From an uncultured Bacilli bacterium (lineage in GTDB: Bacteria; Bacillota_I; Bacilli_A; RF39; UBA660): 64,000 nt of DNA. Position 1 is the first letter of the stretch; each line of letters starts with the position of its first letter. The stretch lies in assembly GCA_947631035.1 (NCBI GenBank), contig CANRJW010000002.1, forward strand, positions 3,233-67,232, read 5' to 3'. The notes under the pieces are model-generated. The model was not told where the DNA came from, did not search any database, and worked only from the letters and a program-made list of their open reading frames with translations. Of this stretch, positions 2,633 to 40,568 are shown piece after piece. A program made the position numbers and the translations under genes.

Positions 2633-3464
2633 ATCTCTTCTTCATAGCCTCATATGTATTTTTCATGAGCATTGCAACCGTCATTGGTCCTACACCTCCA
2701 GGTACGGGAGTGATAAAAGAACATCTAGGTGCAACATTTTCAAAATCAACATCACCGCAAAGCTTGTTATTCTCATCTCTATTGATGCCAACATCAACAA
2801 CTACTGCACCTTCTTTTATCATGTCAGCAGTAATAAATTTGGGCTTGCCAATTGCGACAATGAGAATATCTGCCTGTAGGCACTCTTCTTTTAGGTTTTT
2901 AGTCTTAGAGTGACATATAGTTACAGTGGCATTTCTATTAAGCATAAGAGCGGCCATGGGCTTTCCTACAATATTAGAACGACCTACAATAACTACTTTT
3001 TTACCTTCAATCTCAATATTATATTCATCAAGCAGTCTCATAATACCCGCAGGCGTACACGCCACAGTACATTCCTTACCTGCAAAGAGTCTACCCATGT
3101 TGATATCCGTAAATCCATCAACATCTTTTTCTGGATCAATTGAATTGAGGACTTTATTACTATCAAGATATGCGGGAAGAGGAAGCTGTACTAAGATACC
3201 ATCTACCGTCTCATCGTAGTTCATATTCTCAATAGAGCTCTCAAGACTTTCTTGAGTGCATGTTGTTAGGTAAGCATCCTCAACTTCGATACCTACCTCT
3301 TGACTGGCTTTTGTTTTATTCCTGACATAAGTAGCAGATGCAGAGTTATCGCCCACCCTAAAAATTACAAGGCGGGGTGAGCGCCAAAAACCGTTTTCCT
3401 GAATAGCCTGTTTGGCTTCGTTTCTGACTTTTTGAGCAACTGCCCTCCCATCAATTATTACCAT
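2625..3464 (-). CDS. folD: bifunctional methylene-THF dehydrogenase/methenyl-THF cyclohydrolase FolD
   Basis: Motifs DGILVQLPLP and GRSNIVGKPMA with a Rossmann-type GxxGxxG region. Start set at the internal Met (MVIIDGRAV). Confidence 0.85.
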   Translation of the reverse strand: MVIIDGRAVAQKVRNEAKQAIQENGFWRSPRLVIFRVGDNSASATYVRNKTKASQEVGIEVEDAYLTTCTQESLESSIENMNYDETVDGILVQLPLPAYLDSNKVLNSIDPEKDVDGFTDINMGRLFAGKECTVACTPAGIMRLLDEYNIEIEGKKVVIVGRSNIVGKPMAALMLNRNATVTICHSKTKNLKEECLQADILIVAIGKPKFITADMIKEGAVVVDVGINRDENNKLCGDVDFENVAPRCSFITPVPGGVGPMTVAMLMKNTYEAMKKRYE

Positions 3465-3804
3465 TTTTAACCTCTGCATCCAGTAGTGTTGCAAGATAGT
3501 TTTCTTCTACTTCTCGCATTTTTTGTTCTGATAAGACAGTATCCCCATAAAGAGCTTCCTGAAACTCATCTACTTGCTTAATCTCTTCTTCGGTCAGCTC
3601 CGTATCGGTGACGATTTCGCAGAACGCATCAAACTCGCAGATATCCACAGCTTGGCAAACCGTGAAAAGCATTCTCTTGCCGCGAGACCGTGCAAACTCT
3701 GCCGCTTCCTTCTTCCGCTGCTCGAAGTTCTCCAGATTGAGATCGGAATAGTCCCCGCTCGAAATCCCGTTGCGGTACAGCTTGATAAGAATTGTCCCTT
3801 CCAT
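3451..3804 (-). CDS. hypothetical acidic protein in a locally GC-rich segment
   Basis: 117 aa ORF; local GC about 50% versus about 35% for the window. Confidence 0.45.
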   Translation of the reverse strand: MEGTILIKLYRNGISSGDYSDLNLENFEQRKKEAAEFARSRGKRMLFTVCQAVDICEFDAFCEIVTDTELTEEEIKQVDEFQEALYGDTVLSEQKMREVEENYLATLLDAEVKNGNN

Positions 3805-4765: not shown

Positions 4766-5064
4766 ACATCCTTTGCCGCATGAGCAATCTTGTACATATA
4801 TTTACTGGTCGTGCCTTTTGTCTTTTTACTTTTTTCAAATCTCACGGTCAATATTAAGACTCGAACCAGTTCAACTAATATTGTGACAATGGTGACACAA
4901 TAAGATCCAGCACTGACATAGGCAAATACATTTATAGGATATTCTCCATTCGCTGCCGTTGCCCCTAACCCTATCGCACTACTCACCATCGAAACAGCTA
5001 AGGCTAACAAAATAACTGCATTCTCAATTATCACCCATCTGCTCTTTTGCCGACACTTCCTCAC
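4762..5064 (-). CDS. small membrane protein (two TM segments)
   Basis: Hydrophobic stretches VIIENAVILLALAVSMVSSAIGL and CVTIVTILVELVRVLIL. Confidence 0.4.
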   Translation of the reverse strand: MRKCRQKSRWVIIENAVILLALAVSMVSSAIGLGATAANGEYPINVFAYVSAGSYCVTIVTILVELVRVLILTVRFEKSKKTKGTTSKYMYKIAHAAKDV

Positions 5065-7424: not shown

Positions 7425-8201
7425 TTAATTAATTGTAAAGCAGTAAATTATACTGTTTTGACTGTTTGCGGAATCAATGCTAGTAGCACCATTAGTAGCT
7501 AAAGCGCACCAGCTTGAAGCCGATGATGAAGATCTATTTCTTAACCACCTAATATGATTGCTAGATAGCTCAGGGGTCGCTGTAGTTGGGGTGGTCCTGC
7601 CCATCGATGTCAGCAACTGTCTATAATATTCAAACCGAGTTGAATTAGTTTTAACCATACCCGAAACTGATACATTGCCCCAGATTTCTTCCACTGAAGG
7701 TACCCAAAGAGTGCTGCTACTGCTAGCAGTAGCGGTATCTGAAGACTTGCTTATCGGGGTAATCATATCCTTGAGATAATTAGGAAATAGTAACCTAAGG
7801 ATGGTGTTGTGTAAAACATCATACACAACTGTTTTAGCCCAATCTGTAGTTGAAGAAATTAACATGCTAGAACTATGAGCCCAAAAAGAGGTTTGCCATG
7901 TGGAGCCTGTATAATCAGCATCGACGCAAAGTACAGGATGAATACCTGCTTCCTTCAATTCTATAAAAGCACGATCTCCAGCTCTTACAGCTACTGTCTT
8001 GTTCTTTACATTTTCCCAGTAGGCTTGAATATTAAAACTTATAGAGTGTATGGAATCTACTGCATTTATGGCTGCGTTGTTGGTATTCCCTATATATAGG
8101 TTATTATTTTCCATATCATAGTAGGGTTGACCAGTTAAGAGAACTTGATTACTGCTGAGACCGTTTCCTCTTAGAAGTTGTATTGATTTATTATTAGCCA
8201 T
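7425..8201 (-). CDS. tail-fibre/receptor-binding-like protein, paralog family member 1
   Basis: Conserved N-terminus MANNKSIQLLRG...QPYYDMENNNLYIG is shared with 24063..25001 and 37868..38653, and the C-terminus is divergent. The TTTGCTAAATT motif lies upstream. Confidence 0.5.
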   Translation of the reverse strand: MANNKSIQLLRGNGLSSNQVLLTGQPYYDMENNNLYIGNTNNAAINAVDSIHSISFNIQAYWENVKNKTVAVRAGDRAFIELKEAGIHPVLCVDADYTGSTWQTSFWAHSSSMLISSTTDWAKTVVYDVLHNTILRLLFPNYLKDMITPISKSSDTATASSSSTLWVPSVEEIWGNVSVSGMVKTNSTRFEYYRQLLTSMGRTTPTTATPELSSNHIRWLRNRSSSSASSWCALATNGATSIDSANSQNSIIYCFTIN

Positions 8202-8255: not shown

Positions 8256-9392
8256 TTAGTCTTTCAAATTTAGAACCTGCATTTTGTAGTTTCTACTGCA
8301 TCTAAGAAACCATTCACGTACATATGCATCAAGATCACACTCAGGACGATCATTGTACCATCTAAAAAGTAAAGCACTGATATCTTTATGATTATTCATT
8401 ACGTAAAGTGCAAAGTCCTTTTTAGTTTCATACGGGCCATGGGCTTCCGTATCCTCAATAGCGCTAACACTTTCTTGGATAAAATAATCAAGTAAGCATG
8501 TAAGCTCTGCAAAACGTTTTTGATATTCAGGAAAGTATGCTAAGAATTCATTTTGTTCATTATGTTCAATGATTTCAAGAATGCGAACCTTACTCTGTAC
8601 GCCGTTGTTTGCAAGATAATGAGCTTGCAACCATTTTGTGTTCTTAATTTTTACTCGATTCCAGTACTTATCAACTGCGACAAATCCTTCTTCATCCCAA
8701 TCCATTTCTTCCAGCGCTTTCTTACACTCATCAAGATTAGAAAGATTGTAGCTGCAAGGGCGCCAAACAGGGAGATCTTTTATATCAGGAAATTGTTCTT
8801 CAAAGGTATTAACATCCCTCATGCCGATAAGATAGACACGAGCAGTATCGTAGGGAACAACTACTCGATTATAAGGAGAAACAAGTTCAAAGGTGTAGCA
8901 CTTAGAGCAATCAAGATGAGTAAATAAACTGTCGAGAGTGGTAATATCATTCCACAAAGCTTCTTCAAACAATGCTTTAAAAGAAATGGGCTTAGAGAGT
9001 AGTGGAGAATTAACCTTAGCGTCAGTAGCATCAAGAGTACCCGAGGTGCTAATTCTCCATTTACTATGAATATTGTCCCACCATACTAAGATTTTAGAAC
9101 CATCTACCTTTTCTTGAACACTTACTGAGTCCCAGTCAATTTCAGCTGCGTATTGCTCCCCAACGTTGTAGAACTTAAAGAAGCTGAGAGCAACAGGGGT
9201 AAGGGTGTGCTTATTAACAACCAGGCCCCTGCACTCATTACAAATCTTTTGACTAAAATCACTAGCTATTTGATTGTATTTAAGAAGAACATAATCACCA
9301 TCTTCGCTTAAAGAGAGATTATAAGGAGGATTGGTAAGTATGTCCTTCCAGTTGTCCAGATTGTTTCTCATTAATTTTATCGTCTCAAGCAT
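8256..9392 (-). CDS. rnlA: ATP-dependent RNA ligase 1 (T4 RnlA-like tRNA repair ligase)
   Basis: Matches remembered T4 Rnl1 landmarks: ECRG, a nucleotidyl-transfer KVDGS motif at about residue 95, and EGFVAV..VKIK (motif V). Confidence 0.8.
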   Translation of the reverse strand: MLETIKLMRNNLDNWKDILTNPPYNLSLSEDGDYVLLKYNQIASDFSQKICNECRGLVVNKHTLTPVALSFFKFYNVGEQYAAEIDWDSVSVQEKVDGSKILVWWDNIHSKWRISTSGTLDATDAKVNSPLLSKPISFKALFEEALWNDITTLDSLFTHLDCSKCYTFELVSPYNRVVVPYDTARVYLIGMRDVNTFEEQFPDIKDLPVWRPCSYNLSNLDECKKALEEMDWDEEGFVAVDKYWNRVKIKNTKWLQAHYLANNGVQSKVRILEIIEHNEQNEFLAYFPEYQKRFAELTCLLDYFIQESVSAIEDTEAHGPYETKKDFALYVMNNHKDISALLFRWYNDRPECDLDAYVREWFLRCSRNYKMQVLNLKD

Positions 9393-12364: not shown

Positions 12365-12666
12365 AATTCACCTCCATGGTGTATAAAAAAAAAGATTTTC
12401 AGGGTATTCTACGACTGAGTGGTTGCGGGATGTAACCTGCCTGATTTTAAGAAGTAAGTCATAGTAGCTGAAAATCTCTCAAATAAAAATTATTGTAGCC
12501 CTGAACCATTTTAACAGAATGATGCTTTTTAGCGAAGTAAGGACTACTAGCTGGAATATAAAAAATCAGGAAAGTTTGATAAATTATTTTGCTGCTGATC
12601 TAAATCTTCATTAACCATTTATAAAAGAAGTAAGCAACAATAGCTTGTAAATAAATTTCCTGATAT

Positions 12667-12741
12667 GGAGCTGGTGGTCAGACTTGAACTGACAACCTGC
12701 TGATTACAAATCAGCTGCACTGCCAATTGTGCTACACCAGC
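12667..12741 (-). tRNA. tRNA-Thr (anticodon TGT)
   Basis: Hand-folded cloverleaf GCTGGTG..GCTGA-TTTGTAA-TCAGC..GTCAG-TTCAAGT-CTGAC..CACCAGC-T-CCA; CCA is encoded. Confidence 0.8.
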
Positions 12742-13485: not shown

Positions 13486-15150
13486 TCAAAAAAGTCCTGT
13501 AATTTTCCCTTCTTCATCAATATCCATCTTTTCCGCTGCAGGAATAGAAGGCAATCCAGGCATTGTCATAATATTGCCTGTAAGCACCACAATGAACCCT
13601 GCACCTGCTGACACCTTTACATTTCTAACTGTAATATTAAAATGTTCAGGCGCTCCTAACTTACTTGCATCATCGGAGAAAGAATACTGTGTCTTAGCTA
13701 TACAAATTGGAAGAGATCCAAATCCAAGACTTTCTAATCTTTTAATTTGTTCAAGTGCTTCGGGCGTGTAGTCAACACCGTCACCACCATAAATCTTTTG
13801 AGTAACTGCTAGAATCTTATCTTTAATAGATAATTTTTCATCATAAGAATAATTAAAATTACTCTTCTGTTCGCAAAGTTCAACAACCCTGCTAGCAAGA
13901 TCGATATTACCTGCACCGCCATCTGCCCATGCAGTAGACAGAATAGCATCGATACCTAGCTTTTTACATTCTTCTATTACAAGAGAAATTTCAGCATCAG
14001 TATCAGAGGGGAACTTGTTAATAGCAACAACGGCAGGGAGATGGTAGACATTAGTAATATTAGAGACATGTCTAAGAAGATTAGGAAGACCGTTCTTCAA
14101 TGCTTCTAAATCTTCATGTTCCAATTCAGTCCTAGTCAGTCCACCATGCATCTTAAGAGCCCTAATTGTTGCTACTACAACAACAGCATTGGGGGTAAGG
14201 CCTGCAGTTCTACATTTAATATCAAGAAATTTTTCGGCACCGAGGTCAGCACCAAACCCTGCCTCTGTAACTACATAATCAGCAAGCTTAAGGGCTGTCT
14301 TAGTAGCGATGATGGAATTACATCCATGTGCAATATTAGCAAATGGACCACCATGAACAATAGCAGGCGTAGCTTCTAGTGTCTGAACAAGATTGGGTTT
14401 GAGTGCATCTTTAAGGAGAATAGCCATAGCACCTACGGCTTTTAGGTCTCTCGCAGTTACAGGCTCTCCATCACAAGTATAACCTACAATTATTCTTGCA
14501 AGTCTCTCCTTAAGATTCGAAAGGGAGGTAGATAAGCATAGAATTGCCATAATTTCACTAGCAACTGTAATATCAAATCCATCCTTCCTGGGCACACCTG
14601 ATTTAGGTCCACCAAGGCCATCCTCGACATAACGAAGCTGACGATCGTTCATATCAACACATCTCTTCCATGTAATCTTTTCAGGATCAATGTTAAGAGG
14701 GTTACCGTGAAAGATACTATTATCAAGCATAGCAGCAAGAAGATTGTTTGCTGCACCGATAGCGTGAAAATCTCCGGTGAAATGGAGGTTAATATCTTCC
14801 ATCGGGACTACCTGTGCATAACCACCGCCGGCAGCTCCACCCTTAATACCAAAAACAGGGCCAAGAGAAGGCTCACGTAGAGCAGCTACTGTTTTATGCC
14901 CAAGTCTTGCTAGACTATCTGCAAGTCCAATCGTTGTTGTAGTCTTACCCTCACCTGCAGGTGTTGGGGTAATGGCTGTAACAAGAATTAGCTTACCATC
15001 AGGTTTATTTTGATTCATAATAGATAAGTCGAGCTTGGCTTTATATTTACCATAGTACTCGACCTCATCATCTGAAATGCCTAGGTAATGTACAGCATTA
15101 CTAATAGGCTTTATAGTAATTTGTTGTGCAATTTCAATATCTGTTAACAC
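13486..15150 (-). CDS. fhs: formate--tetrahydrofolate ligase (formyl-THF synthetase)
   Basis: 554 aa with the [16 protein letters not shown]-loop and an overall match to the Fhs architecture. Confidence 0.9.
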
Positions 15151-15182
15151 TCTTCACCTCTTGCTTATACCTAACCATTTAA

Positions 15183-15377
15183 TTACAGGTCCTCTAACAG
15201 GTATTTTTTAACACCCTCTTTGCAAATATCTGAAGAAATATAACTATTTGTTTGGCATTCCTTCAGTTTAGTACACAGAAAGCAAAGTTCAAGGTCCACA
15301 CTTGAACATAGATAGTCAACCATGTCATCAACTGTTTCGTATAAGTGATATTTATTTAGTACCTCAAAACGTGTCAT
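15183..15377 (-). CDS. hypothetical Cys-containing small protein
   Basis: 64 aa ORF. Confidence 0.3.
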   Translation of the reverse strand: MTRFEVLNKYHLYETVDDMVDYLCSSVDLELCFLCTKLKECQTNSYISSDICKEGVKKYLLEDL

Positions 15378-15496: not shown

Positions 15497-15886
15497 TTAA
15501 TACGAAGGAAAAGAACATAGGCCTTCGTCTATATCTTCTTCACTCCTTCCAAGAATGCTAGCCACGTTCTTGATATCTCTCACTGTCAACCTACCCACTC
15601 TTCCGCCAAGATTCATGTGATTAAGATCCACCAACTTATCTAGTCTCGCGGTGGATGGTTTTCTTAAACCTGCCTCTCTCCAATCGATGATCTTATAGTC
15701 GCCTGAATCCCATTCTCTAACCCCGTGACTAGTAATAGGAGCAACATTTAATATAATTCCAGCGCTGTTATCAAGAATGATAACTGGCCTAGTTTTGTAC
15801 CTTGGTGTGAGCAGGTCTTCGTCTTCTTCGTAGGGAATAGCCCCGATGTAAATATCATAAACTCTCAAGGCAAGGGGCCCTCCCAA
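15497..15886 (-). CDS. MazF/PemK-family endoribonuclease toxin homologue
   Basis: KTRPVIILDNSAGIILNVAPITSHG matches the PemK/MazF core (RPxhhhs...hh.P.TS); length is also typical. Confidence 0.6.
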   Translation of the reverse strand: MGGPLALRVYDIYIGAIPYEEDEDLLTPRYKTRPVIILDNSAGIILNVAPITSHGVREWDSGDYKIIDWREAGLRKPSTARLDKLVDLNHMNLGGRVGRLTVRDIKNVASILGRSEEDIDEGLCSFPSY

Positions 15887-16089: not shown

Positions 16090-16164
16090 TGGTGTGAGTG
16101 AGGAGACTTGAACTCCCGACTCCTTGATTAAAAGTCAAGTGCTCTACCACTGAGCTACACCCAC
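16090..16164 (-). tRNA. tRNA-Lys (anticodon TTT)
   Basis: Fold GTGGGTG..CTTGA-CTTTTAA-TCAAG..GGGAG-TTCAAGT-CTCCT..CACTCAC-A-CCA. Confidence 0.8.
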
Positions 16165-16231
16165 ATAAGATTTGACAGGGGCTGCCAGGACGGGTTGCAG
16201 TGCAGGGGGCGTCCTGACAGTTTGTCAAATT

Positions 16232-16314
16232 TGGTCACCGCGAAGGGATTTGAACCCTTACGATCTCTCACTGGATCCTAAATCCAGCGTGTCTGCCAGT
16301 TTCACCACGCGGCG
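16232..16314 (-). tRNA. tRNA-Leu (anticodon TAG), type II
   Basis: Fold CTGGA-TTTAGGA-TCCAG with a long variable arm and T-arm AAGGG-TTCAAAT-CCCTT; CCA is encoded. Confidence 0.7.
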
Positions 16315-16421
16315 ATATAGCATACATGACTTGCGGGGCGCAATCATATCTATTTTATCTGCGATCTCTGAATATTCAGCGCTCTTCGTTAAGCTACTCC
16401 GCCGACGTCATGCATGCTTAA

Positions 16422-16511
16422 TGGTGGAAGAGGAAGGAATTGAACCTCCTCGATGTCTGATCAGGACATCTCTGCACTTTTACAGATGCAGTATCAATCT
16501 GCGTCTCTCCC
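16422..16511 (-). tRNA. tRNA-like element, type-II-like, anticodon arm unresolved
   Basis: Acceptor GGGAGAG/CTCTTCC, T-arm GGAGG-TTCAATT-CCTTC and CCA are present, but the internal region (CTGCA-TCTGTAAAAG-TGCAG plus a GATGTC..GACATC hairpin) does not give a canonical 7-nt anticodon loop. Confidence 0.35.
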
Positions 16512-16514
16512 ATC

Positions 16515-16601
16515 TGGTGGGCCGGGATGGAGTTGCACCACCGGTGTTTCTGATGTAACGGATTTACAGTCCGCCCCAATCGCTTCTATGGATACCGACC
16601 C
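16515..16601 (-). tRNA. tRNA-Tyr (anticodon GTA), type II
   Basis: Fold GCGGA-CTGTAAA-TCCGT, acceptor GGGTCGG/CCGGCCC-A-CCA; the T-loop TGCAACT is unusual. Confidence 0.6.
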
Positions 16602-16726
16602 ATGAAAAAGAAAAATGACAGGGGCTGGGCTTGCACCAACTTGCGTTTCACGTCCTTACTCCCCCACTCCACTTTGGTGACTAGCCAGAATTGCACTGAC
16701 ATGGGAGCACCTATCAAATTTCCTGC

Positions 16727-16806
16727 TGGTGGCTGGGGGTGGACTTGAACCACCGACATACGGATTTTCAGTCCGTCGCTCTGACCAAAAACTGAGCTAT
16801 CCAGCC
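16727..16806 (-). tRNA. tRNA-Phe (anticodon GAA)
   Basis: Fold GCTC-AGTTTTTGGTCA-GAGC, ACGGA-CTGAAAA-TCCGT, GGTGG-TTCAAGT-CCACC, then CCA. Confidence 0.8.
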
Positions 16807-16862
16807 ATGTTGGCAATTTTCTATGTATCGCATCTCAGCCTGCCATGATACTTCACTTACGG

Positions 16863-16937
16863 TGGTCCGCCTGCCAGGATTTGAACCTGGAATAAAAGAT
16901 TAGAAGTCTCTTGTGATATCCATTTCACTACAAGCGG
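16863..16937 (-). tRNA. tRNA-Arg (anticodon TCT)
   Basis: Fold AGAGA-CTTCTAA-TCTTT, T-arm CCAGG-TTCAAAT-CCTGG, a C1:G72 acceptor, then CCA. Confidence 0.75.
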
Positions 16938-17085
16938 ATATTTATACACCTGACAGGATTCTTAGTACCTGCATCTCCTCCCCGTTTCCTCAGTGATAAG
17001 TTGAGTACTCAGGGGTGGGGTCCTCTTTAACGTTAAACGACAGGTGTTGAGATTTCACTAGGTTATCAAGCTAGCTACTTTCTCA

Positions 17086-17161
17086 TGGTACGGGGTGACA
17101 GACTTGAACTGTCGACTTCCTGCTTGTAAGGCAGGTGCTCTCCCAGCTGAGCTAACCCCGC
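17086..17161 (-). tRNA. tRNA-Val (anticodon TAC)
   Basis: Fold GCTC-AGCTGGGA-GAGC, CCTGC-CTTACAA-GCAGG, GACAG-TTCAAGT-CTGTC, then CCA. Confidence 0.8.
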
Positions 17162-17214
17162 ATGTGTTCGCTTCTCTTACTGTGGAAGCTTTGAAGGACA
17201 GGTTCGTTTTACAT

Positions 17215-17291
17215 TGGTGATGCCTATGCGGCTCGAACGCATAATCTTCAGCTTGAGAGGCTGACGTGTTATCCAGTTCCACTAAGGCACC
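17215..17291 (-). tRNA. tRNA-Glu (anticodon CTC)
   Basis: Fold TCAGC-CTCTCAA-GCTGA, ATGCG-TTCGAGC-CGCAT, acceptor GGTGCCT/AGGCATC-A-CCA. Confidence 0.6.
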
Positions 17292-17364
17292 TGGTTGGAG
17301 AGAAGAGAGTTGAACTCTTACCTGAGGAGCCACAATCCTCCGTGCTACCGTTACACCACAGACC
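17292..17364 (-). tRNA. tRNA-like element with a His-type (GTG) anticodon arm and an unpaired acceptor (possible pseudo-tRNA)
   Basis: Arm GAGGA-TTGTGGC-TCCTC and T-arm AAGAG-TTCAACT-CTCTT with CCA, but the 5' GGTCTGT cannot pair with the 3' CTCTCCA. Confidence 0.3.
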
Positions 17365-17400
17365 ACATATATAAATACAAGAAAGAAGTTTGGTTAATCT

Positions 17401-17607
17401 TTACTCAGCTACAGGCAATTCCCTTTCACTTTCAATACTATAAAGAATACCTTTATTGTTGTGTACGAGAATCCTGTGCATAGCTCTACGAGCAGAATGA
17501 ATGTCTTTGCCTTTATGCACAAGCCTGACTGTTTCATCCTTTCCATGCTCACCAATGGAGCCTCTAAGAATGGTAATAGTAAATTCAAACGACTTTCTTC
17601 TTAACAT
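17401..17607 (-). CDS. hypothetical small protein
   Basis: 68 aa ORF just downstream of the tRNA block. Confidence 0.35.
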   Translation of the reverse strand: MLRRKSFEFTITILRGSIGEHGKDETVRLVHKGKDIHSARRAMHRILVHNNKGILYSIESERELPVAE

Positions 17608-17703
17608 ATTTTACTTAAACACCCCTTCTTGTTTCCTCTATGAATATTATAGTATCAAAGAAAAAGTAAATCTACTAATCTCTGCAGTACTTCTTCAGTT
17701 AAT

Positions 17704-17958
17704 TTACTCGGTTACCCTTCTCTTCATTTCAGCAAAAGCAGCTTCAGCTAATTCATCGCCAAGAGCTCCCTTTACAATGCCTTCAAGAAGCTGAATATAT
17801 TCATCCTTCTCCCCTTCATACATTTCAGGTTCAGGACCTTTGTACCCTTCATAAGAGCAATTTGCGTAGCCCGAGCAGGGACCTGCGTAACGGTTTTTCT
17901 CATCCCGATCTGCAAATTGACAAGTCAAGCAACCACCATTCATATAACACTTATCCAT
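17704..17958 (-). CDS. hypothetical Cys-rich small protein
   Basis: 84 aa with CxxC, C...C..C and C.Y.G patterns. Confidence 0.4.
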   Translation of the reverse strand: MDKCYMNGGCLTCQFADRDEKNRYAGPCSGYANCSYEGYKGPEPEMYEGEKDEYIQLLEGIVKGALGDELAEAAFAEMKRRVTE

Positions 17959-17962
17959 ATAT

Positions 17963-18151
17963 TCACCTCACGTAAACTGTTAAGATATTTTTACCCATCG
18001 AATCAGTAGTGACACTTTCTACTTCGCTGTGTATGAATTCAGTAGGAATGTCCAGAACGGAGCTGCAGAGTGTCAGTGATCCTCCAGTCTTACCAATGAA
18101 GAATAATCGGCAGGACTTTTCGAGACCCTCCAGTAAATTCTCAACAAGCAT
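17963..18151 (-). CDS. hypothetical small protein
   Basis: 62 aa ORF. Confidence 0.3.
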   Translation of the reverse strand: MLVENLLEGLEKSCRLFFIGKTGGSLTLCSSVLDIPTEFIHSEVESVTTDSMGKNILTVYVR

Positions 18152-18273
18152 TATCTCACCTCAAATCATAACAGCAACACTGATAACAGGTTCACCATCT
18201 ACATCAATATCAGCCGCAAAGTCTATAACTTCGTTATCATCAATAACATCAAGAAGATCTTTGAATAGCATAT

Positions 18274-18501
18274 TTACCTCACCTGAATCCAATTATGAAT
18301 ATGGCAACCTGCAACGTTCGTTTCTTCGATCTCGGTCACGACTTCTTGAAAATCATCACCTGCGTAGTTGACGATCACCTCACTGTCGATTGCCTTATCA
18401 TCGTAGCTGACGATCTTGGCACCTGCGGTTTCGAGTAGTTCAAGTACTACCTGAAGGGATTCCTTGTAGTAATTTTCAACCTGAATCTTGTACTGTTTCA
18501 T
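18274..18501 (-). CDS. hypothetical small acidic protein
   Basis: 75 aa ORF. Confidence 0.4.
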   Translation of the reverse strand: MKQYKIQVENYYKESLQVVLELLETAGAKIVSYDDKAIDSEVIVNYAGDDFQEVVTEIEETNVAGCHIHNWIQVR

Positions 18502-18527
18502 CTTCTTACCTCACCCACATTTTCTAC

Positions 18528-18566
18528 ATTTATTATATAATAAAGGGGAAGAAGAATCAACTACTT
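18528..18566 (-). promoter_or_regulatory. promoter-module variant
   Basis: tattatataat...gaatcaactac; upstream of 18274..18501 and downstream of tRNA-Trp. Confidence 0.45.
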
Positions 18567-18589
18567 TCTGTAGTGAGATGAAAAATTTA

Positions 18590-18665
18590 TGGCAGGAGAG
18601 CAGGGATTCGAACCCCAGTCCACGGTTTTGGAGACCGTTATCCTAGACCACTAGACGACTCTCCT
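18590..18665 (-). tRNA. tRNA-Trp (anticodon CCA)
   Basis: Fold AGGAGAG..GTC-TAGTGGTCTAG-GAT..ACGGT-CTCCAAA-ACCGT..TTCGAAT..CTCTCCT-G-CCA. Confidence 0.75.
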
Positions 18666-19518
18666 ATTTAACAAATGTTCTTTTATTTGATCTTTTACTT
18701 TCTACAAAATGAGTTTTGATGTAAATCTCTCTATGAGCCTCATAATTTCTGTTATTATGGAAAGAACCAAAATCGGGAATTGCTTCATTAAGGGGAAGAC
18801 CACCTTCAAGATTCTTCATGTAGGGATGCTCATTAGATTCAATAAGAGGCCTACCATTGAGATTTATAAATTCTTCTATATCCATGTGATCTATTGGTTG
18901 CCCATCTATTATATAAATCATATCTGGGGTGTTTATCTTCTTACCAGCTTGATGATCAGCAGAAATAGTAATTGAGGATAATTGGGTTCTATTCTCATAT
19001 ACAAGATTCCAAATTATATCAAACCAATTAAAATCAAAAGAGCTTACCCTAGCGTAAATATCCTTACCTGAACCTCCTCTATATTTATCACTCATTCTAA
19101 CCCTTAAGAACTCTTGATTCATTCTATTATTTAATTCTTCCCACAATGCCTTACAAGTTGCAATATAATTATCATCAATATCATTTGCAGGTTTAGGATC
19201 AACTACTATAGATAATTCATTTAGGAATATTTTAAGAATATCTTTATCCATTCCAAATTTATGGGTGGCTTCAAAAGAATCATCCATACCAAGAACACCT
19301 CCAGCAAGGCATTCTAAACATTCCTTCATTAGGGGTTTAATATTTTGGTTTGAATGATCTAAAAACCAATTAAGAAACCATGGATCATTAAATAAATCCA
19401 CCATATTAGTAGCAAAGGATTCTTTTACATCATGTAGAATATAAGGATGAATGGATCTACATTCAAATATTTCACCATCGTTACGTACCATGTAAGGTGT
19501 TCTTTCTTTTAACCGCAT
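18664..19518 (-). CDS. hypothetical protein, paralog of 26851..27669
   Basis: Shared blocks TPYMVRNDGEIF vs TPYMLRNDGKVI, NQEFLRVR vs NQEFLRFR, and RVSSFDFNWFD vs RVSSKGFDWSD. Confidence 0.5.
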   Translation of the reverse strand: MRLKERTPYMVRNDGEIFECRSIHPYILHDVKESFATNMVDLFNDPWFLNWFLDHSNQNIKPLMKECLECLAGGVLGMDDSFEATHKFGMDKDILKIFLNELSIVVDPKPANDIDDNYIATCKALWEELNNRMNQEFLRVRMSDKYRGGSGKDIYARVSSFDFNWFDIIWNLVYENRTQLSSITISADHQAGKKINTPDMIYIIDGQPIDHMDIEEFINLNGRPLIESNEHPYMKNLEGGLPLNEAIPDFGSFHNNRNYEAHREIYIKTHFVESKRSNKRTFVK

Positions 19519-19532
19519 TTATATTCTCCTAT

Positions 19533-19579
19533 AAGATAAAAATGAGAGGCCCCATATGCAGAAACACACGAAGCCTCTC
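19533..19579 (-). terminator. rho-independent terminator closing the tRNA operon
   Basis: 7-bp stem GAGAGGC/GCCTCTC followed on the minus strand by ATTTTTAT, placed between the tRNA block and the 284-aa gene. Confidence 0.55.
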
Positions 19580-19852
19580 TTGGATAAAGAAATATGGAAA
19601 GAATTCGGAAAAATCTACATCAATTAACTATATAGAGATTATTCAGTTTTCTATAATGTTTATACCAAAACTTAAAGTGTTTCATAAATAATCTCCTAAG
19701 GTTGATGTACAACTAATTTAGCAATAGTTCTGCTTTCTTTTTGATCAGAAGAAGCAGAAAGAAACTGATCGGTTAAAACGGACCGATGTTCCGCAACAAG
19801 CTGAGTTACGAGGGTGTCGTGCCGTACAACTTGTTAAGGTAGTTGTCAACCA

Positions 19853-19938
19853 TGGTCGGGGCAGTGGGACTTGAACCCACACGTCTTAAAGACCACGGAT
19901 TTTAAGTCCGTTCCGTCTGCCAATTCCAGCATACCCCG
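19853..19938 (-). tRNA. tRNA-Leu (anticodon TAA), type II
   Basis: Fold ACGGA-CTTAAAA-TCCGT, variable arm GTCTT..AAGAC, T-arm GTGGG-TTCAAGT-CCCAC, acceptor CGGGGTA/TGCCCCG-A-CCA. Confidence 0.7.
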
Positions 19939-20029
19939 ATATTGAAGCCCTTCGCTCCTGTAGGTCTGCCAGGACCATCATTTGCTAGGCTTCTCAGCAG
20001 TTCAATTTCTCTTCTGGCAAAGGGTGCTG

Positions 20030-20102
20030 CACATCCCTGTGGGATTCGAACCCAGACCTCCACCCCGCTTGGGTGGTACTCTACCCTTTAAGCTACGGGA
20101 TT
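20030..20102 (-). tRNA. tRNA-like element (canonical GGGTTCGAATCCC T-arm, atypical anticodon and acceptor)
   Basis: D-arm-like TAGCTTAAAGGGTAGAG and a CCACC-CAAGCGG-GGTGG hairpin lacking U33; the acceptor pairing is only partial. Confidence 0.3.
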
Positions 20103-20293
20103 ATAAAAATTTATAGGCTGTTTATCTCATTCCATTTACTACTGCTTCTCTAATCTAAATATTACTAAATGTCAGGTTGTACCTCTTGGCTATCTTGAAC
20201 CTGTTCATATTCAGCTTCGTAGCACCTACAAAGTTATTCTTTATATCTCTATTTTATTTTTTAACCAAAAGAGATATTTGAGAAAAACATTAC

Positions 20294-20370
20294 TGGTGGT
20301 CCACCTCGGGCTCGAACCGAGAACCGGCTGTTTATGAGACAGCTGCTCTAACCTATTGCGCTAATGGACC
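20294..20370 (-). tRNA. tRNA-Met (anticodon CAT), elongator type, or lysidine-modified Ile
   Basis: Fold GCTGT-CTCATAA-ACAGC, CTCGG-TTCGAGC-CCGAG, acceptor GGTCCAT/GTGGACC-A-CCA; no initiator hallmarks. Confidence 0.75.
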
Positions 20371-20374
20371 ATAA

Positions 20375-20463
20375 TGGACGGTGAAGGACTTGAACCTCCG
20401 GCGACCAGCGATTGCAGATGTTACTCATACAACCTCCCGCTCTACCAACTAAGCTAACCGCCC
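20375..20463 (-). tRNA. tRNA-like element of 89 nt with no canonical anticodon arm (intron-containing or degenerate); CCA not encoded
   Basis: Good acceptor GGGCGGT/ACCGTCC, D-arm GCTT-AGTTGGTA-GAGC and T-arm GGAGG-TTCAAGT-CCTTC, but the 38-nt interior (GGAGGTTGTATGAGTAACATCTGCAATCGCTGGTCGCC) gives no 5-bp stem with a 7-nt loop. Confidence 0.35.
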
Positions 20464-20569
20464 ATAAATACTAATGCATGTTAGTAAAGAATTTTGTAAG
20501 AAGTACTTTTAGCTCACAGATTGTGATTGTCAATTTCCACCACGTGAAGGTAGTACCTCATCGGAAATC

Positions 20570-20640
20570 TACAGGGTGGAGGAGTCGAACCCCAATCGCC
20601 GGATATAAGCCGGGTGCAACGACCGCATCACCTACCCTGC
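20570..20640 (-). tRNA. tRNA-Ile (anticodon TAT); CCA not encoded
   Basis: Acceptor GCAGGGT/ACCCTGT with a G1.U72 pair, anticodon arm CCGG-CTTATAT-CCGG, T-loop TTCGACT. Confidence 0.55.
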
Positions 20641-20695
20641 GTATTTTAAAAATTTATCATTTCTACTCTGATATACACTTTCTACTTAACCAAAA

Positions 20696-20863
20696 TTAAA
20701 AGGTAGAGACGTAATATCCAAATTTTCGGTTAATCTCTTTTTCTTCCTTCTTTTCAAGATCTTTCATGTCCTCAATTGCATCCCAGTAGTCATCATAGCT
20801 GTCTACCACCGTTGTACTGCCTGTTTCTCTTTCTACTCTCTTCAGATAATATTTGCTGTTCAT
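20696..20863 (-). CDS. small hypothetical protein (about 55 aa)
   Basis: Hand-translated ORF whose start overlaps the upstream gene's stop as ATGA. Confidence 0.3.
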   Translation of the reverse strand: MNSKYYLKRVERETGSTTVVDSYDDYWDAIEDMKDLEKKEEKEINRKFGYYVSTF

Positions 20864-21066
20864 TCGTTCACCTCTACATTTTTAGCCGCTTCCATGGCTG
20901 TAATCACACCAAGCTTCTTATCTGCCTCTCCACGAAGCGTCAACACTTCTTCGTAAGAAAGCTTATCTGCAAATTGCAGGGCATCAATAATACCGTATAC
21001 GTAGTGCCAATCGACAACTCTTTCCATGGTGTCGATGATTTCGCAAACATACTCTACATAACTCAT
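20860..21066 (-). CDS. hypothetical small protein
   Basis: 68 aa ORF with a promoter module upstream at about 21091-21140. Confidence 0.4.
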   Translation of the reverse strand: MSYVEYVCEIIDTMERVVDWHYVYGIIDALQFADKLSYEEVLTLRGEADKKLGVITAMEAAKNVEVNE

Positions 21067-21144
21067 ACTTTTTACCTCACTCCCTAATCTTCCCTTATAT
21101 TATATAATAGTTGAAAGGAAAAATCAACTAAAAACTAACAAAAT

Positions 21145-21618
21145 TTATCCTTTATCCCTTTCCTTTAAGACTAAACTCTGATTTTTATAGTACTTATTCC
21201 AGGTAACTTCCACTTCAAAGAAATCTGGGGGAATAAATGTATTGGCTTCTTCTTTAGTTGGGAATTCAACTTCACCCATAATCAACCCTTCGAGAGCCCC
21301 TTTGTAGATATCTATCTCGATTTTATGCATACCGTAAGGAAGAACATATCTATCCTTCTCAATAATATTACCTACAATATTATGTTTGTTCGCTTCAAAT
21401 TCGGCTTGCGTACACTCTGTTTCTATTTCTTCCCGTTGTAGACCGTCATCCACTTGCTTTTTTATGGTATGAAAATAAATATCATCTTGTCGTCTATATC
21501 GCTCTTCCACATCGCCTACTTGCACATAGTATTGGGTAAGGTGACGTGATAATAATTTGTTCGATAAGATAATCTGCCTGACAAGATCGTTTAACAAAAA
21601 CTTGCGCTCAATTTCCAT
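21145..21618 (-). CDS. CYTH-domain protein (triphosphate tunnel metalloenzyme; CyaB/thiamine-triphosphatase-like)
   Basis: The N-terminal MEIERKFLL matches the CYTH EIExKF signature; 157 aa with acidic residues spaced along the sequence. Confidence 0.55.
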   Translation of the reverse strand: MEIERKFLLNDLVRQIILSNKLLSRHLTQYYVQVGDVEERYRRQDDIYFHTIKKQVDDGLQREEIETECTQAEFEANKHNIVGNIIEKDRYVLPYGMHKIEIDIYKGALEGLIMGEVEFPTKEEANTFIPPDFFEVEVTWNKYYKNQSLVLKERDKG

Positions 21619-21645
21619 TTTATAACTTTTTAAGTTTAGGCGGCT

Positions 21646-21825
21646 TTAGGCTGGGTACCAAAACCCGCAATTTGCAGCTCCCAACTGATTGTGATTAGCA
21701 TCATAAATGTACACTACAGACGCTTCCCTTCCCGTCTTATTTAACATCTTATCAATAAGATCATCGAGTGAAAGTTTAAACTGCTTGATATGACCATTCA
21801 TGTACTCTACAATATAGTTTTCCAT
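21646..21825 (-). CDS. small hypothetical protein (59 aa)
   Basis: Hand-translated ORF, MENYIVEYMNGHIKQF... Confidence 0.3.
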   Translation of the reverse strand: MENYIVEYMNGHIKQFKLSLDDLIDKMLNKTGREASVVYIYDANHNQLGAANCGFWYPA

Positions 21826-22139
21826 GTAACACCTTGATCTCTTATTATATAAAAACCCAGGCAGGCTACAGCGTTCCTTGCTTCTCGCTGCTTGGCATTC
21901 TGCCCCCGATACCTGCCTATATCCTTACACACATATTCCTGCTCGGAGAGAACACAGGAATGTGAATGGCTGTCAAAAATTACTGAGAAGCATCGCCGAA
22001 TCGAACGGTAGGTCATGCATGACCTTCAACAGGGGTATGTGGATCCCCCTCACCTAGAACTTCCCAGGGCGCCTGAATCGAACAGGTTCGCTATGCATCG
22101 CTACTTTCACTTATCCACACCTTAGCGCCAGCACCAAAA

Positions 22140-22254
22140 TGGTCAGGTTGACTGGGATTGAACCAGCACCCGCTTGCCTCATTGGCAAGCCATCTACCGC
22201 GGACATAATAACGTGGTCACGCTGCTTTTGTCCTTCTATTGAAAGTACAACCTG
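22140..22254 (-). ncRNA. roughly 115-nt tRNA-like RNA with an 8-bp acceptor-like stem, a canonical T-arm and a CCA end
   Basis: 3' end GCTGG-TTCAATC-CCAGT-CAACCTGA-CCA. The only complement to CAACCTGA (TCAGGTTG) lies 100 nt upstream at 22247-22254. The interior holds hairpins GCTTGC-CAATGAG-GCAAGC and GGACA..TGTCC. Confidence 0.3.
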
Positions 22255-22382
22255 ATATCTAGTTCACAGTTCTTCAAAGCAACACTGTGAAATGCTTTCC
22301 TACCGTAGTCGGAAAAGACCAGCCTTGCGTTGCCCCTTCCCATCTACATACCTATTATATAATATAAGAAGGAAAGAATCAA

Positions 22383-25533: not shown

Positions 25534-26556
25534 TTAATTCATTTCCAGGCTCATCTTGTTACACTTGATGAGCAGTTTTTCGATATCATTGAAATAAGGC
25601 TTGTCAGGGAGCTTAGTTGTAGCCTCTGCTTCTCTGACTTTTGCTTTTAACTCATCAATCATAACATATAAATCAGGGCTGATTTCACCTTCAGTAGACA
25701 TATACTTACCGTTGCGCACAGACATTAGAAAATCTTTATCTTTCTCTCTATACGTAACTACTTCACCATCTTTAAGAAGATCATAGCACATTAAGAGAAG
25801 ACGAAGAAGATGCATAATATGCTTATTAAGCTTCATATCTTCTTTATTGTTTCTGTGCCCGATATGCTTGTAAGTCTTGATAATATTATTCATCTCTTCC
25901 CACATCATTTTATAATCACGAAGTGGATAATGTTTGAAATTACAATCCATGAAGATTTCAGTTTCCATATCTTCATTTACTGCAGTATCAGCATAAAGAT
26001 GAATATCATTTTCTCCAAATGGATGGTACTTCTCATGGAATGTATTCATTGCACTGTTGATGGAATTGAGAATATGTTCTTCCTGTTTGGGTTGAGATAA
26101 TTTTTCTCTACATACATAATTCTCAAGACGTGCAAGTTGAGCTGAAGCAAACCCAAAGAACTTACCTACTGCTCTCTTAGATAAGAACAAATGTCTGTTA
26201 GCAAGAATTTCTTTACCAATGTCGTTTAGATAAATGTAATGTTCAGGTTTGCATCCAAGGATTTCAAGAGTGTTGGGATTATTTTCAGTAAGAAGCTCAA
26301 ACATTCTGGAAATTGAATAAATAGTAGTATCTGTTTCTTTTTCTACTACCTGTTCAAATCTATGAAGCCCGAAAATTTCATCAGAACTGTGTACAGCAAT
26401 ACCTCTCACATCAACATCAGATGTGGGAGTAGAAAGACCATACGCATGGCTTCCACCTAAAGTGAGAAGACAAATTCTATTGCCTAGGTGAGGTTCAGTT
26501 CTTAAAAAATCATATGCAGGTGTTTTAAGGCTTTCTTTAATTTCCTGAATTGTCAT
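25534..26556 (-). CDS. Pol-beta-superfamily nucleotidyltransferase (minimal NTase fold with a helical C-terminal domain)
   Basis: LTLGGSHAYGLSTPTSDVDVRGIAV matches the hG[GS]x9-13Dh[DE]h motif; 340 aa. Confidence 0.55.
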   Translation of the reverse strand: MTIQEIKESLKTPAYDFLRTEPHLGNRICLLTLGGSHAYGLSTPTSDVDVRGIAVHSSDEIFGLHRFEQVVEKETDTTIYSISRMFELLTENNPNTLEILGCKPEHYIYLNDIGKEILANRHLFLSKRAVGKFFGFASAQLARLENYVCREKLSQPKQEEHILNSINSAMNTFHEKYHPFGENDIHLYADTAVNEDMETEIFMDCNFKHYPLRDYKMMWEEMNNIIKTYKHIGHRNNKEDMKLNKHIMHLLRLLLMCYDLLKDGEVVTYREKDKDFLMSVRNGKYMSTEGEISPDLYVMIDELKAKVREAEATTKLPDKPYFNDIEKLLIKCNKMSLEMN

Positions 26557-40565: not shown

Positions 40566-40568
40566 GTA

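Follow-up and report, generated by a model that had tools for sequence, protein, structure and literature searches.

Candidate tRNA mimics, a theta-type ribozyme and structured spacer RNAs in the tRNA island of a gut phage

Phage tRNA arrays are usually read as devices for codon supply or against host defence, and their odd members are dismissed as pseudogenes. Whether this is a sufficient description is a question raised by a stretch of 64,000 nucleotides (nt) of contig CANRJW010000002.1 (assembly GCA_947631035.1, positions 3,233 to 67,232 of the forward strand), which is called the window in the following. It belongs to a large gut phage, the hosts of which are probably Clostridia, and carries, at positions 16090-22260, an island of tRNA genes and other noncoding RNAs. 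In a preliminary description made from the sequence letters, five tRNA-like elements in this island had been noted which do not fold in the canonical way, and intron-containing tRNAs, suppressors, decoys, tRNA-derived regulatory RNAs or pseudogenes had been considered for them. All five elements turned out to be real: covariance models neither resolved all of them as standard tRNAs nor failed to score at these sites. Two more tRNA-like elements follow the fifth one. The seven elements are designated E1 to E5, E6a and E6b. Errors of sequencing or assembly are excluded as a source of the anomalies, since five independent assemblies agree in the island sequence with 100% identity. With high confidence the island can be described as containing conserved, mostly non-decoding tRNA mimics, a theta ribozyme and structured spacer RNAs, and the evidence for each of these is presented below.

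Conserved tRNA-like elements

All seven tRNA-shaped RNAs have the "top half" of a tRNA, consisting of acceptor and T-arm with a T-loop motif, and six of them are conserved in sister phages. The motif GGTTCRANTCC was found 16 times when one mismatch was allowed, with 4.2 matches expected and none of 100 shuffles reaching 16; thirteen of the matches are located on the minus strand of the island, the strand which carries all tRNA-type features between 12 and 23 kb. Matches at 4857 and 24646 are both situated within open reading frames (ORFs) and are not tRNA-like. Each of the five elements noted before has a T-arm with a stem of 4-5 base pairs (bp) and the T-loop motif, a D-arm is present in E1 to E4, and the acceptor stem comprises seven pairs in E1, E4 and E5, five to six in E3, and four in E2, which is a tRNA-His. 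A 5-bp anticodon stem with a 7-nt loop containing U33 and a purine at position 37 was found in E2 alone. E1 and E3 to E5 have replacement loops of 4-11 nt without U33, the length of which varies among orthologues. Because the mimics lack such an anticodon loop, they are not members of the tRNA family RF00005 in a functional sense, and the scores above 29 bits which were obtained with this model for E2 (50.5), E4 (41.4) and E3 (33.8) were reached via local skips of the anticodon arm. A decodable anticodon loop has been lost in E1, E3, E4 and E5, and probably in E6a and E6b as well.

Conservation was examined in syntenic sister phages (L022, L023/24, L025, L026/27, L030/31, L032, L034/35, L267/268 and L074), which were located by exact-protein look-ups of homologues of two island ORFs, or in the case of L074 by a DNA scan. 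The latter, run on genomes and metagenomes with a 17-mer that was too short, yielded about 230 chance loci and L074, a contig of a rabbit-gut Clostridia metagenome-assembled genome, as the only genuine one. The closest relatives are animal-gut assemblies binned with Clostridia. For a 146-amino acid ORF more than 130 homologues were counted. INPHARED phages gave generic tRNA matches only and no relative, protein scans of IMG/VR only distant relatives with 31-45% identity, and DNA-pattern scans of IMG/VR for E4, the ribozyme and the spacer RNA S2 described below chance matches or nothing. Among the sister phages retrieved through it, a 284-amino acid ORF within the island is 54-63% identical, as compared to 84-100% for the RNA elements (86-95% for E5 and E6), so the RNA parts are the most constrained sequence of the locus. 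Helices are maintained by compensatory substitutions in E1, E2 and E3, and weakly in E6b.

E1 (16422-16511) is an RNA that resembles class-II tRNAs, ends in ACCA and has a long variable arm. At minimum free energy it folds into a class-II cloverleaf, of which 26 of 26 pairs are formed in each of the phages aligned (window, L023 and L267). Compensatory double changes affect four of these pairs, two of them in the variable arm and one each in the T stem and the "anticodon" stem, and none occur in slid controls. Two folds compete with each other. The 10-nt loop between CTGCA and TGCAG given in the preliminary description, which contains a Tyr-like CUGUAAA, is possible via a G-U pair, and its "anticodon" GUA changes to AUA in L023; covariation, however, favours a D stem GCAG/CUGC and a 4-bp stem UCUG/CAGA with an 8-nt loop. 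This loop reads UAAAAGUG in the window and UAAAGUG in L267, has lengths of 8, 8 and 7 nt in the three phages (7 nt in L267), and contains no U33. Under both folds the loop is non-canonical, and E1 is predicted to be a non-decoder. RF00005 did not match it at E ≤ 10; instead 18.8 bits were obtained with the tRNA-like domain of transfer-messenger RNA (tmRNA).

E2 (17292-17365; 17292-17364 in the earlier version) is a tRNA-His(GUG) with G-1 and A73, called by ARAGORN and RF00005, and its CCA directly abuts tRNA-Glu. The D, anticodon and T arms are canonical, 95-100% paired, and carry two compensatory changes; the copy in L267 is identical to that in the window. The unpaired acceptor reported next to the GTG anticodon arm was confirmed and could be traced to the three central pairs 4:69, 5:68 and 6:67, leaving four of seven formed. 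In each of the four phages of the alignment they are pyrimidine-pyrimidine mismatches, namely U-U, C-C (or C-U) and U-U, and owing to this constancy the open acceptor is seen as a fixed trait and not as decay.

E3 (20031-20102) is a tRNA-like RNA without encoded CCA, detected by ARAGORN, RF00005 and covariation, for which an anticodon hairpin lacking U33 had correctly been described at about 20030-20102. In its orthologues from seven phages 88% of the cells of the alignment are paired, as compared to 35-51% in slid controls, and eight compensatory pairs are spread over all four helices. The anomalies are shared by all seven: none of them forms the pair 1:72, has U33 in the loop or encodes CCA. 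The copy in the window forms five acceptor pairs, with 1:72 and 7:66 mismatched, those in L023, L025 and L267 form six, and overall the window copy has two more mismatches than its orthologues. The anticodon arm is wholly different between two subgroups of phages; loops read CAAGCGG (in the window), CAGGCGGG or CAAGCGGG, and variants of 8 nt without U33 occur. ARAGORN varied in naming the locus, as Ala(agc), Arg(acg), Leu(gag) or with the 4-base anticodon agcg.

E4 (20375-20463), located 3 nt upstream of tRNA-Met, was called by ARAGORN and has canonical acceptor, D and T arms, which alone account for its 41.4 bits, the covariance model skipping the anticodon arm. The RF00005 alignment bore out the 38-nt insertion which had been reported here: 38 nt replace anticodon arm and variable loop and could form a 7-bp stem with an 11-nt loop. 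A search for single deletions restoring a canonical loop gave a weak solution only, in which removal of 14 nt creates a Tyr-like loop UUGUAAA on a stem GGAGG/UCGCU with one mismatch and two G-U pairs, and leaves a variable loop of 7 nt. At 20399-20440 of the minus strand the heptamer GGAGGTT occurs twice, flanking a 31-nt core, which may be a duplication scar or chance. No orthologue of E4 was found in the sister phages or by the DNA scans.

E5 (22140-22254) was identified by its fold and by orthologue alignment. It is a tRNA-like RNA of 115 nt, as had been described, with an ACCA end and an acceptor stem of 7 bp; the 8 bp given before are obtained only if T22255 is included. It has a T-arm; the D-arm is replaced by a long hairpin, and the anticodon arm by a stem of 7 bp which carries a loop of 5 nt. 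Its orthologues (L023 7774-7851, L025 2417-2494, and L074) are tRNA-like RNAs of 78 nt in which the stem has 6-7 bp and the loop reads AAUAAAA or AAUAGAA; the loop of the window and of L267 is AAUGA. The difference in length is explained by a 39-nt hairpin insertion in the D-loop (22199-22237), which occurs only in the window phage and in L267 and has an apical stem AGCGU/ACGUU in the former and GGCGU/ACGCU in the latter. Changes among E5 orthologues are one-sided only. Copies of the E4 and E5 inserts as repeated or mobile sequence were not found elsewhere.

E6a (22135-22068) is a tRNA-like element of three-way shape, which is closed by a stem of 4 bp and has a long arm and a T-arm-like hairpin CCUG-UUCGAUU-CAGG; with 92-95% identity in five sister phages it is too invariant for a covariation test. 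E6b (22067-21983), detected by ARAGORN at a threshold of 80% and by folding, has a 9-bp closing stem, a GGGGG/CCCCU hairpin with a 9-nt loop, a hairpin GGUCA-UGCA-UGACC and a T-arm-like CCG-UUCGAUU-CGG; it is conserved to the same degree, and its pair 93:103 covaries (A-U to G-C), which is weak compensatory support. In both elements the closing stem stands beside a GUUCGAUUC hairpin. No RF00005 match was obtained with E6a or E6b, and no Rfam match with E5, at E ≤ 10. In L026 (486-543, identical to L027 2448-2505) a tRNA-like element of 58 nt was seen, scoring 28.7 bits and apparently without an anticodon arm.

E5, E6a and E6b lie in series between a sigma-70-like promoter P1 (TTGATT-17-TATAAT, 22382-22354 of the minus strand, a match to the consensus only) and a terminator-like hairpin with a U-run, in L074 likewise, and are therefore regarded as an independent unit consisting of mimics only. 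The extended P1 motif recurs at 21127-21099 and 18560-18532 of the minus strand, and a second unit ends in an intrinsic-terminator-like hairpin at 19544-19579 (minus strand). The three promoter-like sites share the longer motif TAGTTGAYT ... TATTATATAATA, which suggests a phage-specific class of promoters.

A theta-type ribozyme and structured spacer RNAs

Theta ribozymes are minimal ribozymes of the hepatitis delta virus (HDV)-like type which gut phages carry at tRNA 3' ends (Kienbeck et al. 2024, PMC10879173). At 20501-20569 of the minus strand a sequence was detected that fits the segmentation given for them in supplement files 3, 4 and 6 of that work base for base in the conserved core. 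Its segments are, in order, GATTTCC, GATG, AGGTACT, ACC, T, TC, ACGT, GGT, GGAAATT, GA, CAATCACAATCTGTGAG, CTAAA and AGTACTT. These form P1 (GAUUUCC/GGAAAUU, with a G1-U pair), P2 (AGGUACU/AGUACUU), P3 (ACC/GGU) and P1.1 (UC/GA) in a nested double pseudoknot, which is obtained in the Rfam alignment as well as with our own descriptor. The junction J4/2 (CUAAA) begins with C20512, the predicted catalytic cytosine. The descriptor was written from the published segmentation, and in both strands of the window (128 kb) it found exactly this one site; none was found when the catalytic C was replaced by A, G or U, in 60 shuffles, or in the sister loci. Rfam holds no dedicated theta model; the nearest one, RF02682, recovered the same helices with 29.2 bits (E = 0.0022 on 701 nt).

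Cleavage is predicted 5' of G20569, i.e. immediately 3' of the discriminator A20570 of tRNA-Ile(UAU) (20570-20640), a tRNA with a canonical 7-nt anticodon loop which is accepted by ARAGORN and scores 24 bits with Rfam. That this tRNA has no encoded CCA is accounted for by the ribozyme following it directly. From these features of the sequence we conclude that 20501-20569 is a theta-type HDV-like ribozyme which would form the 3' end of tRNA-Ile(UAU) by self-cleavage. Cleavage by HDV-like ribozymes leaves a 2',3'-cyclic phosphate, and the ligase RtcB joins such ends to 5'-OH ends; RtcB and the nucleotidyltransferase RlaP, both encoded in the window, might thus act on the tRNA-Ile released by the ribozyme. 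Besides tRNA-Ile(UAU) and E4, the elements for which the lack of CCA had been noted before, E3 also belongs to this group, which makes three. The slot of the island which holds the tRNA-Ile(UAU), the ribozyme and E4 is variable, and the three were probably acquired together; in L023, L025 and L030 the slot contains tRNA-Met only, and in L074, L267 and L272 a different tRNA-Ile(UAU) which bears CCA. In L267 (3173-3262) and L272 (1290-1379) a 90-nt tRNA-Ile(UAU) was observed, the anticodon loop of which is canonical and the variable region unusually long.

The island further contains three structured spacer RNAs, each defined by a consensus fold and all on the minus strand. S1 (20103-20228), between tRNA-Met and E3, is 80-94% identical in four sister phages and forms 29 pairs, five of them with compensatory changes; it matched no Rfam family. 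S2 (19939-20030) is a conserved RNA of 92 nt that fits exactly between E3 and tRNA-Leu(UAA), and the three are contiguous in seven phages regardless of the form of the E3 anticodon arm. Its consensus fold has 25 pairs, two of which covary through three pair types, and its loops UGCCAG and CUGGCA could in this model kiss. No Rfam family matched S2 at E ≤ 10, including hammerhead, twister, pistol, hatchet, glmS, YrlA and riboswitches. An HDV-like fold was discarded for S2, since the core ACC-U-YC-NCGU-GGU is absent and the order of the helices does not fit. A covariance model of S2 had matches in this clade only, and more remote homologues were not detected with it when 595 kb of related loci were searched. 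By analogy with the theta ribozyme, S2, which always comes after the CCA-less E3, could be a new ribozyme forming 3' ends. S3 (16938-17085), a conserved RNA of 148 nt exactly between tRNA-Val and tRNA-Arg, consists of a hairpin at the 5' end and, after it, a four-way junction with ACACCUG/CAGGUGU as closing stem; nine of its 36 predicted pairs show compensatory changes, and there was no Rfam match. Junctions without any spacer thus exist between tRNA-His and tRNA-Glu, at both ends of S3 and of S2, between E6a and E6b, and between tRNA-Ile and the ribozyme, so that the 5' cut of each module would make the 3' end of the preceding one.

Since the odd members of the array are selected for the tRNA fold without decoding and its spacers are structured, the array looks like a tRNA-punctuated noncoding-RNA operon. 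The preliminary suggestion which fits best is that of tRNA-derived regulatory RNAs, in the form of conserved tRNA-derived non-decoding RNAs, although it had missed the ribozyme abutting tRNA-Ile and the structured spacers.

Possible roles of the mimics and alternative readings

The tRNA top half is the part recognized by RNase P, RNase Z and the CCA-adding enzyme. RNase P recognizes the stack of acceptor and T-arm, RNase Z cuts CCA-less precursors after the discriminator, and precursors with encoded CCA are trimmed at their 3' ends by exonucleases. On this basis we somewhat favour a reading of the locus as a tRNA-punctuated noncoding-RNA island in which the tRNA top half is kept as a portable module. 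The three sigma-70-like promoters would drive polycistronic precursors from the minus strand, and host RNase P would cut the 5' end of every tRNA-shaped module. The 3' ends would be formed in three ways, i.e. by exonucleolytic trimming where CCA is encoded, by RNase Z at E3 and E4, and by the cis-acting theta-type ribozyme at tRNA-Ile(UAU). In this manner tRNAs, mimics and S RNAs would all be released from the precursors, the ends of S1 to S3 being set by the flanking tRNAs or mimics. S2 would owe its 5' end to the CCA-less E3, which would be a handle for RNase Z, and its 3' end to RNase P acting at tRNA-Leu. The top half would provide defined ends and stability, and the anticodon side would be free for other contacts. 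The CCA-ended E1 and E5, and the unit of E5 to E6, may act in trans as stable tRNA look-alikes in a tRNA-centred conflict with the host, a conflict hinted at by the genes for RtcB, an Rnl1-like ligase, RlaP and a MazF-like toxin. A function of the mimics which combines the top half as a processing and stability module with a part in such a conflict is proposed tentatively.

Several points weigh against this reading. The role of the mimics is deduced from sequence, and the sets compared are small, comprising three to seven related phages (three for E1, seven for the E3 family, four for tRNA-His); the shuffle control overstates significance where sequences are related. E4 has no orthologue and thus no conservation evidence. 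E2 retains a canonical anticodon loop and could still decode. The promoter-like sites are no commoner than in shuffles. The modules of the E5-E6a-E6b unit have nothing between them to punctuate, and a role as processing handle cannot explain all mimics. The score of the ribozyme is below the gathering threshold of RF02682 (44), and most published theta examples have a shorter L4/P4 and J1/2 than the 17 nt and 4 nt, respectively, found here.

It could alternatively be supposed that the elements are decaying, functionless tRNA pseudogenes in a fast-evolving phage array. Several of them score poorly or not at all with tRNA models, E4 was found in this phage only, and the window copy of E3 has the additional mismatches described above. 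This is very unlikely in view of the conservation, which for E1, E2, E3, E5 and E6 exceeds that of neighbouring protein genes (four of the five elements first noted are 84-100% identical in phages in which the neighbouring protein is 54-63% identical), the compensatory substitutions in every helix class (four pairs in E1, eight in the E3 family, two in tRNA-His), and the fact that the anomalies themselves are conserved, such as the mismatches of tRNA-His or the lack of U33 and CCA in E3. For E1, E2, E3, E5 and E6 pseudogenes are thus largely refuted. Least probable of all is that the elements with enlarged loops are special decoders, i.e. quadruplet or frameshift tRNAs or stop suppressors. ARAGORN at low threshold did assign 4-base "anticodons" at 16426-16515 (gtaa) and 21985-22063 (gaag), and theta ribozymes are often linked to suppressor tRNAs according to PMC10879173. 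However, the anticodons CUA, UUA and UCA were absent from canonical loops, both with ARAGORN at default settings and among the tRNA-like elements of this strand in relaxed runs, so the suppressors considered before were not found; the loops lack U33 and R37 and vary in length and sequence among orthologues, the tRNA linked to the ribozyme is an ordinary tRNA-Ile(UAU), and the ORFs of the window are read through normally with table 11. A few stop and selenocysteine calls appeared in the most permissive intron mode of ARAGORN; they had long predicted introns, overlapped no tRNA-like element and were judged spurious, as were the long-intron calls which its intron and relaxed modes mostly gave. 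Taken together, the sequence evidence indicates that E1 to E3 and E5 are selected tRNA mimics and not decaying pseudogenes, suppressors or hosts of group I introns.

Two other explanations accept the elements as functional. One is that they serve as decoys or sponges for host factors directed at tRNA (for instance defence nucleases, toxins, modification enzymes or other regulators that bind tRNA), being made to mimic or protect genuine tRNAs and not for the sake of RNA processing. The data agree with this idea, which overlaps with the functions proposed above, but as a separate explanation it is unlikely. The phage invests in the control of tRNA damage (RtcB, Rnl1-like ligase, RlaP and MazF-like toxin), the E5-E6a-E6b unit is dedicated to mimics from promoter to terminator, and tRNA-His combines a perfect anticodon stem-loop with a crippled acceptor as a nuclease bait would have. 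In PMC10264068 it is, moreover, proposed that phage tRNAs counter tRNA-targeting defences. Most mimics, on the other hand, lack the canonical anticodon loop at which anticodon nucleases usually act, a particular host factor cannot be pointed to, and the exact abutment of E3, S2 and tRNA-Leu is left unexplained. The remaining explanation is that the elements, E4 above all, are split genes of decoding tRNAs, from which segments are excised and the halves joined by RtcB or Rnl1. It draws on the two RNA ligases encoded in the window, on the Tyr-like loop that E4 acquires when 14 nt are removed, on the lineage-specific insertion of E5, and on split tRNA genes with inserts of 46-69 nt ending in CCA, or with a group I intron, in sister phages. 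It is quite improbable nevertheless and possible for E4 only, as the best solution for E4 has a poor stem and a 7-nt variable loop, the E1 and E3 loops differ by single-nucleotide indels and not by discrete inserts, and neither a group I nor a ribozyme signature was detected in these elements; no bulge-helix-bulge was noticed on inspection, which did not include a systematic search. In the case of E5 the insertion is real and shared only with L267, and orthologues without it are still non-canonical, so its removal would not yield a decoding tRNA; the idea of intron-containing tRNAs held in this part only. A check for group I introns and tmRNA, which the preliminary description had suggested, was negative: Intron_gpI (RF00028) had no match in the window even at E ≤ 10, and for tmRNA only the partial match of E1 was obtained there, together with ARAGORN calls at relaxed threshold which were permuted or spurious.

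The split genes just mentioned deserve a closer description. The tRNA-Lys(UUU) is intact in the window and in L267, and in four other lineages its anticodon loop is interrupted after U34 or U35 (L023 14237-14354; L030 approximately 15083-15200; L026 2064-2198, identical to L027 4026-4160; L022 7154-7295). In L023 and L030 the insert is a minihelix of 46 nt with a 6-bp acceptor-like stem including three covarying pairs, a hairpin CUGG-GGCAGUA-CCAG and an NCCA end; in L026 and L022 it is a mini-cloverleaf of 62 or 69 nt with a UUCAAAU T-loop and an ACCA end. Compensatory changes occur in both exons and inserts. Across the insert the exons continue to covary; the genes are therefore used, and the insert has to be excised. 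The inserts run from an acceptor stem to a terminal CCA, which suggests that RNase P cuts at the 5' end of the insert, that a second cut is made after CCA, and that the halves are sealed by a phage ligase, Rnl1 or RtcB. We know of no such splicing route in bacteria or phages, and in the literature no precedent was found for tRNA-like introns or for conserved non-decoding tRNA mimics in phage tRNA arrays. The split tRNA-Lys genes may represent a novel type of tRNA intron that is connected with RNA ligases of the phages. Alternatively, the inserts may have originated when a mature mimic RNA was ligated into a tRNA cut by a nuclease and the product was copied back into DNA. A PemK gene stands beside the intact tRNA-Lys in the window and in L267, and L023 has no PemK. 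The orthologue of tRNA-Leu(UAA) in L023 (9435-9725) and L030 (4886-5170) is interrupted after U34 by a group I intron with a length of about 200 nt, which scores 52.9 bits with Rfam. A more distant relative, L270, has at 7948-8166 a HEARO RNA (135.9 bits) adjoining an RRXRR/HNH ORF. It is a doubtful though attractive generalization that the clade treats the tRNA shape as a movable RNA cassette, which would have split the tRNA-Lys of the sister phages and left the middle of E4 and the hairpin of E5 as relics, with S2 as a possible ribozyme.

Setting of the island and related systems

Twelve canonical tRNAs had been counted in the island. Between 16090 and 22260 eleven were found, and a total of twelve is reached if tRNA-Thr(UGU) (12666-12741) outside this range is included. 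The others are, besides tRNA-Ile(UAU), Lys(UUU) (16164-16090), Leu(UAG) (16314-16232), Tyr(GUA) (16601-16515), Phe(GAA) (16806-16727), Arg(UCU) (16937-16863), Val(UAC) (17161-17086), Glu(CUC) (17291-17215), Trp(CCA) (18590-18665), Leu(UAA) (19853-19938, uninterrupted and with encoded CCA) and Met(CAU) (20294-20370, also with encoded CCA), all called by both ARAGORN and RF00005. In total ARAGORN with default settings called 14 genes in the window, and RF00005 had 13 matches above its gathering score of 29 bits. The tRNA-Tyr is an extra match of this model (16518-16601, 37.8 bits) which appeared in E-value mode only. The long variable arms ascribed to tRNA-Tyr and both tRNA-Leu are indeed present.

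The phage also carries replication genes. Around the island four genes, all on the minus strand, appear to make up a full toolkit for tRNA breakage and repair: RtcB RNA ligase (1550-2632; PF01139, E = 7.5e-56), a T4 Rnl1-like RNA ligase (8256-9392; PF09511, 38.4 bits), RlaP, a Pol-beta-type nucleotidyltransferase of RNA-repair pathways (25534-26556; PF10127, E = 1.6e-21), and a PemK/MazF-like endoribonuclease toxin adjoining tRNA-Lys (15497-15886; PF02452, E = 1.5e-7). Genes of folate one-carbon metabolism were also noticed on the minus strand, namely FolD (2625-3494), formate-tetrahydrofolate ligase (FTHFS, 13486-15150) and thymidylate synthase (ThyA, 44656-45486). A patch at 40-44 kb, with inverted GC skew at 40-42 kb (GC 0.30), raised GC of 0.49 at 42-44 kb, and a serine-recombinase (resolvase) gene and a 463-amino acid ORF on the plus strand (39957-41960), is probably an inserted mobile element.

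Taken as a whole, the island is a phage tRNA array with accessory stable RNAs, one ribozyme of the theta family and several uncharacterised structured RNAs. Its interest lies mainly in the demonstrable selection on non-decoding tRNA shapes, and in the lead to a new kind of tRNA intron which the clade offers. It provides concrete candidates for a role of tRNA-like RNAs in phage infection, to our knowledge an open question since the stable RNAs of phage T4 were described. The tRNA cluster of T4 encodes non-tRNA stable RNAs (species 1 and 2; rnaC/rnaD), which are co-transcribed with the tRNAs and cut from the same precursors by the tRNA-processing machinery, and for which we know of no function. 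The island differs from this cluster in having at least seven tRNA-shaped and three other structured RNAs with covariation evidence, and in the INPHARED comparison no sequence relation to T4 was seen.

The ribozyme shares with the theta ribozymes of PMC10879173 the nested layout of P1, P1.1, P2 and P3, the identical core ACC-U-UC-ACGU-GGU ... GA ... CUAA, the position of G1 directly after the discriminator of a CCA-less tRNA, and the occurrence in a gut Bacillota phage of Caudoviricetes type. It differs from the examples given there by its longer L4/P4, with a possible CACA/UGUG mini-P4, and its J1/2, and by its partner, which is tRNA-Ile(UAU) instead of a suppressor in a genome that is not recoded. 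Among the entries listed in the supplement no match to this ribozyme or its tRNA was found. By its sequence it appears to be a new member of the theta family, which it extends to a non-recoded Bacillota phage and to tRNA-Ile(UAU) as partner. Resemblance of E1 to the tRNA-like domain of tmRNA (RF00023) is limited to weak matches (18.8 bits, and 19.8 bits for the orthologue in L023), far below the gathering score of 47, and E1 lacks the mRNA-like reading frame, the pseudoknots and the split acceptor.

Altered anticodon loops are known from phage tRNAs which, according to van den Berg et al. 2023 (PMC10264068), evade host anticodon nucleases in this way. Deviant anticodon loops in phage tRNA genes, a conflict around tRNA and RNA-repair genes are common to both cases. 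The tRNAs treated there still decode and have 7-nt loops, whereas the loops of the window have the wrong length and no U33, which makes decoding unlikely. Finally, the t-elements of plant mitochondria are tRNA-like structures that serve as processing signals for RNase P and RNase Z (PMC1920247). As in this system, non-decoding tRNA-like folds in the island stand at the ends of other RNAs which they may define, and the layout of E3, S2 and tRNA-Leu(UAA), with a non-decoding tRNA-like fold abutting an RNA whose end it would set in seven phages, fits this pattern. The plant case concerns the maturation of organellar mRNAs and the present one an array of noncoding RNAs in a phage, in which several of the mimics, unlike t-elements, encode CCA and stand alone in a unit of their own.

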